Source of the DNA: Escherichia coli
GTDB lineage: Bacteria; Pseudomonadota; Gammaproteobacteria; Enterobacterales; Enterobacteriaceae
Strand: one strand, 5' to 3'
NCBI RefSeq assembly: GCF_003334255.1
Contig: NZ_QOWU01000159.1
Length of the DNA stretch: 1,411 nucleotides
The translations under genes and the position numbers were made by a program. Below the pieces are notes generated by a model that searched no databases, had not been told where the DNA came from, and worked only from the letters and a program-made list of their open reading frames with translations. Shown here piece by piece: positions 1 to 985 of the stretch; position 1 is the first letter of the stretch, and every line of letters begins with the position of its first letter.

Positions 1-749
1 ATGGTGATGCTGGTCATGCCGCCCGTTTCCTGTGAAAGGCGGTCAAGCGCTGCCCTCAGACGAACGTGCTCGTCTTCATCGAATGGTTTTCCGTAGGCGG
101 TAAAATTGTCCCGGCCACTGAATTGCAGGTAAGGGGGATCGCAGTACACGCAAAGCGTGTTGCCCATGCCGAACAGGTGACTGGCAGAGTTCAGCGTATC
201 CTTAAAATCTGCGTGGATAAGCAGCGTTCGGGTGCTGTTTGCCTTGTCTGCAAATGCGCGGATTTCACGCTCAGGGAAGTAGGGCTTGCGGTAGCAGCCG
301 AAAGGCACGTTAAAATCGCCTTTTCCGTTCACGCGGAACAAACCGTTAAAGCTGTGTCGGTTCAGGTACAAAAACATGGCGGCCAGTCGCAGTTCACGGC
401 GGTCGCTTATTCCCGTTCTGCTGTTCAGGAAGGCATGATTCTCTGCGTTAAAGGTTTCGCGAATGATGAGATAGTCACCCCTGTTGTTGTGGTTCAGGAA
501 CAGGGTTTTCGCCTCGTCGATCAGGCTGTCGGTGTTGTCCCTAGCTTGCCGGTAGAAATTAATCAGCGCACCATTGGAATCACCCAGGATGTAACGCTTG
601 TAACTGGTGTTCATGAATACCGATGCGCCGCCCACGAACGGCTCAACCAGACAGTCGGCTTCTGGCAGGTGCGCCTTCAGTGTGTTCATGATGCGGCTTT
701 TTCCGCCCACCCATTTCAGTGGCGTACCGGATAACAGTTCTTTGCTCAT
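1..749 (-). CDS. dam: DNA adenine (N6) methyltransferase, Dam family (alpha/D12 class); 3' end (C-terminus) truncated by the window edge
   Basis: Hand translation of the minus strand: ATG at 749..747, preceded by AGAGG (761..757) at 7-nt spacing and by an in-frame TAA (767..765), so this is the first possible start. The frame stays open to position 1 (249 codons, none of tta/cta/tca in phase on the plus strand). Protein begins MSKELLSGTPLKWVGGKSRIMNTLKAHLPEADCLVEPFVGGASVFMNTSYKRYILGD and is collinear with E. coli Dam blocks as I recall them: LKWAGGK; EPFVGAGSVF (SAM-binding FxGxG, here EPFVGGASVF at nt 615..644); FLYLNR..NGL.R.N..G.FNVPFG; VYCDPPY (catalytic DPPY at nt 129..140); NFTAY. Absent from the ORF track because no stop lies within the window. 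E. coli Dam is 278 aa, so roughly 30 residues probably lie beyond position 1. Confidence 0.93.
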   Translation of the reverse strand, partial: MSKELLSGTPLKWVGGKSRIMNTLKAHLPEADCLVEPFVGGASVFMNTSYKRYILGDSNGALINFYRQARDNTDSLIDEAKTLFLNHNNRGDYLIIRETFNAENHAFLNSRTGISDRRELRLAAMFLYLNRHSFNGLFRVNGKGDFNVPFGCYRKPYFPEREIRAFADKANSTRTLLIHADFKDTLNSASHLFGMGNTLCVYCDPPYLQFSGRDNFTAYGKPFDEDEHVRLRAALDRLSQETGGMTSIT

Positions 750-973
750 AACGCGGCCTCTTTGTTATAGGTTTCGTGCGTTAATAAATCCCATGACGCC
801 CCGTTGTTTTTGCTCAGTAATCGCCAGCGGAAACCGATTCTTATTACCAGGTAGTCGTGGGGTTTTATGCGTGAAAAATTCCGCACGCCGTCGCGGAATA
901 AACGCAGCGATGCGCGGGCTTTTCTTTCCACGTTCAGGGGGGGGCAGCAACACACATTCAGGATGGCGACCAT
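746..973 (-). CDS. Hypothetical small basic protein (75 aa), possible translational-coupling ORF between the exonuclease and dam; may be non-coding
   Basis: ATG 973..971 lies 7 nt downstream of GAGGTGA (984..978), a near-consensus Shine-Dalgarno whose first bases overlap the exonuclease TGA stop. The ORF stop TGA (748..746) overlaps the dam ATG as ATGA (749..746). Against a real gene: product MVAILNVCCCPPLNVERKARASLRLFRDGVRNF... is Arg-rich with no recognisable motif, contains the G8/C8 tract and contains a terminator-like hairpin. Confidence 0.3.
   Translation of the reverse strand: MVAILNVCCCPPLNVERKARASLRLFRDGVRNFSRIKPHDYLVIRIGFRWRLLSKNNGASWDLLTHETYNKEAAL
757..761 (-). promoter_or_regulatory. 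Shine-Dalgarno (AGAGG) for dam
   Basis: Coding-strand AAAGAGG-ccgcgtt-ATG; 7-nt spacer to ATG 749..747. Confidence 0.55.
874..899 (-). terminator. Candidate intrinsic terminator or attenuator (7-bp stem, 8-nt loop, UUUU) in the minus-strand transcript
   Basis: Minus-strand RNA 5'-AUUCCGC (899..893) GACGGCGU (892..885) GCGGAAU (884..878) UUUU (877..874)-3'. The stem has 4 GC and 3 AU pairs, with a possible extra G-U closing the loop. Oriented with the genes; on the plus strand the same palindrome is followed by AAACG, not a T-run. Weak: the stem base next to the U-tract is AU-rich and stability was not computed. Confidence 0.25.
937..944. repeat. Homopolymeric tract G8 (C8 on the coding minus strand)
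   Basis: Direct read: plus strand 931..946 is cgttca-gggggggg-ca. Lies inside the small ORF (codons TGC-CCC-CCC-CTG). Its presence is certain; its biological significance is not. Confidence 0.9.
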
Positions 974-977
974 GGCT

Positions 978-985
978 TCACCTCA
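978..985 (-). promoter_or_regulatory. SD-like TGAGGTGA overlapping the exonuclease stop codon, positioned to start the small ORF at ATG 973
   Basis: Coding-strand ACATATGAGGTGAAGCCATG; matches AGGAGGTGA consensus at 8 of 9 positions; 7-nt spacer to the ATG. Confidence 0.4.

Follow-up and report, generated by a model that had tools for sequence, protein, structure and literature searches.

Type II toxins of the RelE/ParE superfamily (RelE, YoeB, YafQ, and HigB; ParE), including the prophage-borne ParE2 of PaaR2-PaaA2-ParE2 (Protein Data Bank [PDB]: 5czf), are α/β proteins of about 84 through 121 residues that sit beside an antitoxin in autoregulated two- or three-gene modules. Overlapping cistrons coupled in translation through ATGA or TGATG junctions are familiar from trpB-trpA, trpE-trpD, and many phage operons. 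Readthrough extensions, such as the A1 extension of the Q-beta coat protein through UGA, place one in-frame UGA between two open segments, and the contingency loci of Neisseria, Haemophilus, and Campylobacter vary in the length of a homopolymeric tract. Here we analyze a 1,411-nt stretch of Escherichia coli DNA (contig NZ_QOWU01000159.1; herein the window) in which a 75-codon open reading frame (ORF; herein the small ORF) lies between a 3′-5′ exonuclease gene and dam. The locus resembles each of these systems in part: the model of the small-ORF product has the α/β fold of the toxins, the exonuclease stop lies inside the next Shine-Dalgarno (SD) sequence with an ATGA further downstream, one in-frame UGA stands between two open stretches, and the 5′ coding part of the small ORF contains a C8 run. 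We conclude that the small ORF is very probably a real accessory gene, separately translated, in the early (lytic) operon of a P2-like E. coli prophage. It is already known to Pfam, PHROGs, and RefSeq and is, to that extent, an ordinary genome feature.

The small ORF and its protein family

The small ORF occupies 746..973 on the minus strand, stop codon included. Its product matches Pfam family PF24732 (ParE_like; independent E value 1.2e-17, model positions 2 through 67 of 67), which is the sole Pfam match, and the phage family phrog_1525, which has 75 positions and no assigned function (E 5.5e-27, profile positions 3 through 72 of 75). RefSeq names the identical protein, WP_000225756.1, "ParE family toxin-like protein", and the exact 75-residue sequence is recorded on at least 1,000 contigs in the protein collection. 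A search of 5.8 billion cluster representatives returned 37 relatives, almost all of exactly 75 residues, from Escherichia, Klebsiella, Enterobacter, Citrobacter, Salmonella, and Pantoea. A profile run against 1.84 billion representatives, clustered at 50% identity, gave 96 small proteins that are more distant. All 68 aligned relatives match PF24732. The family is thus one of small single-domain proteins (about 65 through 95 residues) with the core motif WRLLS...W.L(M/L)(T/S)HE.YN, and R51, L52, W61, and Y69 are among the residues that are invariant or nearly so in its alignments. With hidden Markov model matches over the full length of PF24732 and phrog_1525, a length of 75 residues, and the WRLLS...HE.YN core, the window protein is a member that differs in nothing from the rest.

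For comparison of loci we used 80 IMG/VR loci plus RefSeq loci, reduced to unique ORFs. The pairwise ratio of nonsynonymous to synonymous substitution rates (dN/dS) is 0.118 among Klebsiella-type small ORFs (46 unique ORFs) and 0.357 among those of the E. coli type (6 unique ORFs). Variable sites are distributed over the three codon positions as 35/32/65, the third position varying about twice as often as the first or second, and the alternative frames of the small ORF are nearly never open across the compared loci. The bias toward synonymous change that a first-pass annotation of the window, made from the sequence alone, had named as a check is therefore present, and the alignments identify the small ORF as a member of a conserved phage protein family under purifying selection.

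The anatomy of the two junctions is compact. The exonuclease stop (TGA, 985..983) is embedded in TGAGGTGA, where it overlaps the SD sequence of the small ORF (GAGGTGA, 978..984, minus strand); the GAGG core lies 7 nt before the start codon (ATG, 973..971, minus strand), which is thus optimally spaced. The anti-SD duplex upstream of ATG 973 has an energy of −6.9 kcal/mol, placing it in the top 2.2% among all window positions. At the other end the stop codon (TGA, 748..746) and the dam start (749..747) form an ATGA overlap (746..749, minus strand), and a GAGG SD for dam (757..760, minus strand; anti-SD duplex −5.8 kcal/mol) falls within codons 72 and 73 of the small ORF, 7 nt before ATG 749. All of the positions given in the first-pass annotation for the exonuclease stop within TGAGGTGA, ATG 973, the 75 codons, TGA 748..746, and the ATGA with dam proved correct, as did its description of the product as basic (13 K/R versus 6 D/E, counted from the translation).

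Both junctions recur elsewhere. Among 63 distinct homologous loci the upstream stop is embedded in TGAGG at 59, the small ORF ends in ATGA at 62 (the next gene being dam, dcm, or a small ORF), and an SD-like motif is present in its last codons at 61. As judged from these alignments, the stop-in-SD and ATGA arrangements are conserved across the small-ORF family; with a gap of 8 through 9 nt and both junctions kept at small-ORF loci, the arrangement is that of other coupled cistrons and has nothing unusual about it. Exonuclease, small ORF, and dam would then be read from one early transcript as three cistrons coupled in translation. Ribosomes that finish the exonuclease would keep the SD and AUG 973 accessible, or would reinitiate at AUG 973, and ribosomes terminating at 748..746 would restart on dam by way of the SD in the last codons of the small ORF.

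The prophage setting is seen in E. coli strain JNEC-KY204, where the counterpart of the window sits within a P2-like prophage. One strand of that prophage carries an integrase and a helix-turn-helix repressor; the other carries, in order, Cox, several small genes, the exonuclease, the small ORF, dam, more small genes, and the replication endonuclease gpA. This gene order is the layout of the P2 early operon, which in P2 has Pe as its promoter and the C immunity repressor as its negative regulator (PMC3936717). A megablast search of the window gave matches of 89 through 99% identity in 29 of 5,426 complete E. coli genomes, chromosomal every time, and zero matches in the phage collection.

Across its contexts the small ORF is independent of the exonuclease: the genes upstream and downstream of it vary, and it can be deleted without moving the exonuclease end. 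In the E. coli type it lies between exonuclease and dam. In Klebsiella-type prophages it follows an exonuclease of only 33% identity and precedes either a 64-residue ORF or dam; in Escherichia phage ESSI2_ev239 it lies between exonuclease and primase (about 2498..2716 of the fetched region); and in Salmonella phage SW3 a family member (2501..2728) lies between dam and the cytosine methyltransferase gene dcm. E. coli TUM9803 has an 86.5%-identical exonuclease followed by a different ORF of 72 residues and then a ParE-like gene of 50% identity. A tblastn search against phages found relatives in phages that are not P2-like, some of them from sewage or wastewater (Sortsne, fHe-Yen8-01, and ECML-606-1); in these three and in SaltyDalty, family members lie among small early genes with no common neighbor.

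Two complete E. coli genomes, of strains Bongo and JNEC-KY174, lack the small ORF, and their exonucleases end at the same TGA. Five nucleotides past that stop they carry the last 11 codons of the small ORF (THETCNKEAAL*) together with the dam SD and the ATGA (5425..5470 in Bongo). Since these codons are kept, the two loci are deletion derivatives; their sequences indicate that the small ORF is dispensable, and that its 3′ end is kept for the translation of dam.

Some side observations concern these contexts. The 64-residue ORF of Klebsiella (4225..4419 in one Klebsiella-type locus, and in many IMG/VR loci) overlaps its two neighbors, the ParE-like gene and dam, through ATGA-type junctions. Neither Pfam nor PHROGs has a match for it, and E. 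coli and many Klebsiella-type loci lack it. The RefSeq record of ESSI2_ev239 leaves the ParE-like ORF unannotated. In fHe-Yen8-01 a gene with the annotation of a particle-associated ADP-ribosyltransferase toxin is found about 650 nt downstream of the ParE-like gene.

Several points weigh against reading the small ORF as a translated and coupled gene. An open frame by itself is weak evidence, as an open run of at least 72 codons turns up about 15% of the time when the 233-nt spacer is shuffled with its dinucleotides preserved; we judge the small ORF real because it is conserved and not because of its anatomy. Translation from ATG 973 and its coupling to the neighboring genes are both read from sequence and conservation. 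The dN/dS of the E. coli lineage (0.36) indicates weaker constraint than in the Klebsiella type, and the gene is dispensable in some prophages, as in the two deletion derivatives, and is often frameshifted at a C tract described below.

The exonuclease stop and the shared frame

ATG 973 lies 12 nt past the first base of the exonuclease TGA, a gap of 9 nt, and the two frames therefore coincide. Translation of 1411..746 gives 222 codons with one internal stop, which confirms that a single TGA is the only stop in the exonuclease frame over this interval. For this arrangement the first-pass annotation had offered a separate, coupled small protein whose frame coincides by chance, with a prior of one in three; a longer exonuclease now cut short; or readthrough of the stop. 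At 52 of 57 distinct exonuclease-ORF junctions the exonuclease TGA lies inside TGAGG and the gap that follows is 8 nt long, which puts the small ORF out of frame; the 5 with a 9-nt gap, in frame, are of the E. coli type only. The frame relation is thus not conserved, and the compared sequences show it to be an accident of one lineage, whose spacer has 9 nt in place of 8.

Programmed readthrough of the UGA would yield a minor isoform in the E. coli lineage in which the exonuclease is fused to the ParE-like domain. The frame is indeed continuous in the window, as it is in E. coli-type loci that carry a C8 tract, and in E. coli UGA leaks more than the other stop codons; however, a G follows the stop codon here, and UGA-G is not known as one of the leaky contexts. 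The continuity is missing at the 52 out-of-frame junctions, and within the E. coli lineage itself variants with C7 or C9 tracts break it downstream; as these variants put the core out of the exonuclease frame in many E. coli isolates, they argue further against readthrough. Over 101 nt around and after the UGA, folding is no stronger than in shuffled sequences (z +1.29), an Rfam scan gave no match at E up to 1, and a synthetic exonuclease-W-ORF junction peptide retrieved no fusion protein from the 5.8 billion cluster representatives. Two apparent fusions (P0023 and P0036) were traced to an error-ridden metagenome contig with split genes and to a frameshift, and four other longer family matches (P0059, P0064, P0079, and P0119) have N-terminal over-extensions or unrelated N-terminal regions that are not exonuclease. 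A cluster at 90% identity that holds the 75-residue protein has a 193-residue exonuclease as its representative; the junction-peptide search found no such fusion, and we regard this as a clustering artifact, another small cluster holding unrelated 502-residue proteins and showing that the clustering is noisy. Compared with known readthrough extensions, the locus lacks a conserved frame relation, a stimulatory context or structure, and a fusion product on record, and its downstream segment has a strong SD and ATG of its own and is an independent gene elsewhere. We therefore reject readthrough as a selected feature and consider such an isoform very improbable.

The remaining alternative holds that the exonuclease was once longer and overlapped dam, that a nonsense codon or a base-call error cut it, and that the small ORF is its lost C terminus. 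The coincidence of the frames, with one stop between them, is what such a history would leave. The part of the exonuclease gene inside the window (983..1411, minus strand; Rv2179c-like, PF16473; phrog_255, E 8.5e-36; RefSeq "3′-5′ exonuclease") is the 3′ two-thirds, and it runs out of the window. Its full-length ortholog in JNEC-KY204 has 193 residues, and all of PF16473 (positions 1 through 177 of 177) matches residues 2 through 183, so that the domain is complete before the stop. The first-pass annotation had suggested looking for orthologs that extend by about 80 residues to dam; instead, orthologs at 32 through 90% identity share the same end column in the alignment, with or without the small ORF downstream, and end alike beside a different spacer, another downstream gene, or a deleted ORF. 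A base-call error is opposed by the junction itself: TGAGGTGAAGC is identical in 25 E. coli-type loci of independent assemblies, retrieved by the junction pattern, each with the TGA. The 75-residue unit stands alone in unrelated phages without an exonuclease upstream, and no exonuclease-ORF fusion is found among the cluster representatives, where the only long matches are frameshifted metagenome calls. With the domain complete, the ortholog ends constant, and the TGA present in 25 loci, truncation is rejected and is, in our estimate, barely conceivable; the exonuclease C terminus is missing nothing. Of the proposals in the first-pass annotation, the separate, coupled small basic protein with a coincidental frame is the one that stands, given the conserved family, its purifying selection, and the coupling signals kept at both ends, and there is no recoding event or pseudogene at this junction.

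A shorter exonuclease is annotated in two loci, at 160..720 in the locus of E. coli STEC17-183 and at 160..729 in a second locus (L101), giving 561 or 570 nt compared with 582; this points to a frameshift in these assemblies or to another choice of start codon.

Predicted fold and possible function

An AlphaFold2 model of the small-ORF protein, built from a 28-sequence alignment, is confident (mean predicted local distance difference test score 83.9). It has a strand at residues 4 through 7, a helix at 13 through 27, strands at 34 through 36, 41 through 46, 50 through 54, and 60 through 65, and a helix at 66 through 74. Modeling thus shows a predicted shortened RelE/ParE toxin fold, with a single helix at the N terminus, a sheet of four strands, and a short helix at the C terminus; if anything, its likeness is slightly closer to the RelE-type RNases than to ParE. 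Foldseek against AFDB50 gave as significant matches other "ParE-like toxin domain" proteins and two DUF2857 fusions. The conserved polar residues R51, S54, H66, E67, Y69, and N70 lie on the sheet and where the C-terminal helix begins, positions that appear to match those of the catalytic Arg, His, and Tyr in RelE/YoeB-type toxins; this likeness is drawn from the motif and general knowledge rather than from a superposition.

As an observation in its own right, the two DUF2857 proteins (A0A5T3ZFH6 and A0A2X3D7W2; 268 and 296 residues, from Salmonella and Klebsiella) each contain a region that matches the ParE-like model with template modeling scores of 0.86 through 0.87 and 37 through 38% identity; hence some larger proteins carry the ParE-like domain as a fusion.

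Compared with the RelE/ParE toxins the window protein is short, at 75 residues, has a single N-terminal helix, shows no detectable sequence homology, and is embedded in a long phage early operon, with no adjacent antitoxin and no autoregulated module; the family extends to phages outside the P2-like group. A number of searches speak against a toxin. Foldseek of the model against the PDB gave no match at E < 1e-3, though the same toxin families came first, phmmer and the family profile gave chance matches only among PDB sequences, and hhalign aligned the family to E. coli RelE with a probability of 0.6%. PF05016 is not matched by the window protein, the best E value being 0.048 in 1 of 68 relatives, and PADLOC and NCBIfam scans of the 75-residue protein were empty. 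No antitoxin partner is evident in the neighborhoods, where the genes vary and share no homology across contexts. It is the predicted fold that suggests a toxin, and "ParE-like" is to be read as the name of a fold. For PF24732 and the label "ParE-like toxin domain" we found no paper, no solved structure by sequence, and no experimentally characterized member; reviews of toxin-antitoxin systems at large had no bearing on the family.

We tentatively propose that the small-ORF protein is a lytic-only, antitoxin-free effector of a host target or of host defense. In lysogens the immunity repressor would silence the operon, and the protein would be made during lytic growth only; as the operon should be silent in lysogens, an antitoxin may be unneeded. 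The protein could then act on ribosome-bound mRNA in the manner of RelE, YoeB, and HigB, on gyrase in the manner of ParE, or on host defense, to the benefit of the phage.

The main alternative to this effector model is that the RelE/ParE fold has been kept for a nontoxic role, as a small exapted binding or regulatory protein of the early operon that modulates, for example, replication, methylation, or a host factor and does not kill the cell. The placement of R51, H66, Y69, and N70, with S54 and E67, like the catalytic residues of RelE/YoeB-type toxins speaks against it as far as the motif can tell, as does the occurrence of the family in many contexts outside P2, and we regard a nontoxic role as possible but doubtful. 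In a conventional toxin-antitoxin pair, by contrast, the protein would act in lysogens, in prophage maintenance or abortive infection, with an antitoxin that has gone unrecognized, candidates being a neighbor such as the exonuclease, Dam, or the Klebsiella 64-residue ORF, or a small RNA. The fold suits such a pair, the tight overlap with the downstream gene recalls the toxin-first operons of the HigBA type, and in Klebsiella an ORF of unknown family lies directly downstream. This ORF was rejected as an antitoxin, having no Pfam or PHROG match and no conservation, and no other neighbor is conserved: a common neighbor sought across five phage contexts was not found. Nor was a promoter proper to the small ORF detected or a PADLOC model matched, and the family is also present in phages from sewage and wastewater whose fetched regions hold no lysogeny genes, where addiction makes little sense. 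A conventional pair is accordingly quite unlikely. If the effector model is correct, the small ORF may encode a factor for host takeover or against host defense.

The variable C tract and the rest of the window

A C8 homopolymer (937..944, minus strand) spans codons 10 through 13 of the small ORF (TGC CCC CCC CTG), and E. coli relatives differ in its length. The 25 E. coli-type loci comprise 14 with C8, 6 with C7, 3 with C9, and 2 with an interrupted tract (CCCCACCC); changes of +1 and −1 each occur in at least two sequence backgrounds. At altered tracts RefSeq calls products of 68, 70, 61, or 46 residues from internal starts, the 70-residue product beginning at an alternative ATG (955..957, minus strand) that a C9 tract brings into frame with the conserved core.

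Contigs were counted by lineage in the protein collection, in which part of each cluster is listed. In the window-type lineage full-length 75-residue forms are on at least 1,000 and 160 contigs, with shortened forms of 68 residues (C7) on 100 contigs and of 70 residues (C9) on 31; in a second sub-lineage (L101 type) the full-length form is on about 217 contigs and shortened forms on about 88. The lineage with the interrupted tract has the full-length form on 47 contigs and, among the members listed, no shortened form save one partial call.

These differences look like a real slippage-prone polymorphism. Like a contingency locus, the small ORF has lengths of 7, 8, and 9 that recur in at least two backgrounds, and its interrupted-tract lineage is free of frameshifted forms among the members listed. 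Unlike one, its tract is short at C8, the gene is probably silent in lysogens, and what is seen is a length polymorphism only. Because of that probable silence the variation may reflect the neutral decay of a silent gene in a prophage, or in part errors in homopolymer assembly.

A broader reading joins the fold with the tract: PF24732 proteins would be "solo" miniature RelE/ParE-fold effectors that act early in infection, antitoxin-free, and that are switched by slippage of the C8 tract in E. coli P2-like prophages. This combination is unlikely. Were it true, temperate and possibly virulent phages would use such effectors to shut down a host process or neutralize a defense, and the switching would make the small ORF a phage-borne, phase-variable toxin-fold gene. 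The interest that remains lies in a toxin-fold family found without an antitoxin in phage early regions across Enterobacterales, with a variable homopolymer in E. coli.

On the minus strand the window holds three features, the 3′ two-thirds of the exonuclease gene, the 75-codon ORF, and the 5′ three-quarters of dam. Scans for promoters and terminators found none on the coding strand inside the window, and the JNEC-KY204 locus gave consensus-level noise only. Two ORFs antisense to dam and the small ORF, at 66..734 (plus strand, 222 residues) and 607..1008 (plus strand, 133 residues), show no sign of being genes, and RefSeq annotates none here. The dam part (1..749, minus strand) leaves the window and encodes a Dam-family N6-adenine methyltransferase (TIGR00571, E 6.3e-60; phrog_56), the product being labeled "DNA adenine methylase", 326 residues, by RefSeq.

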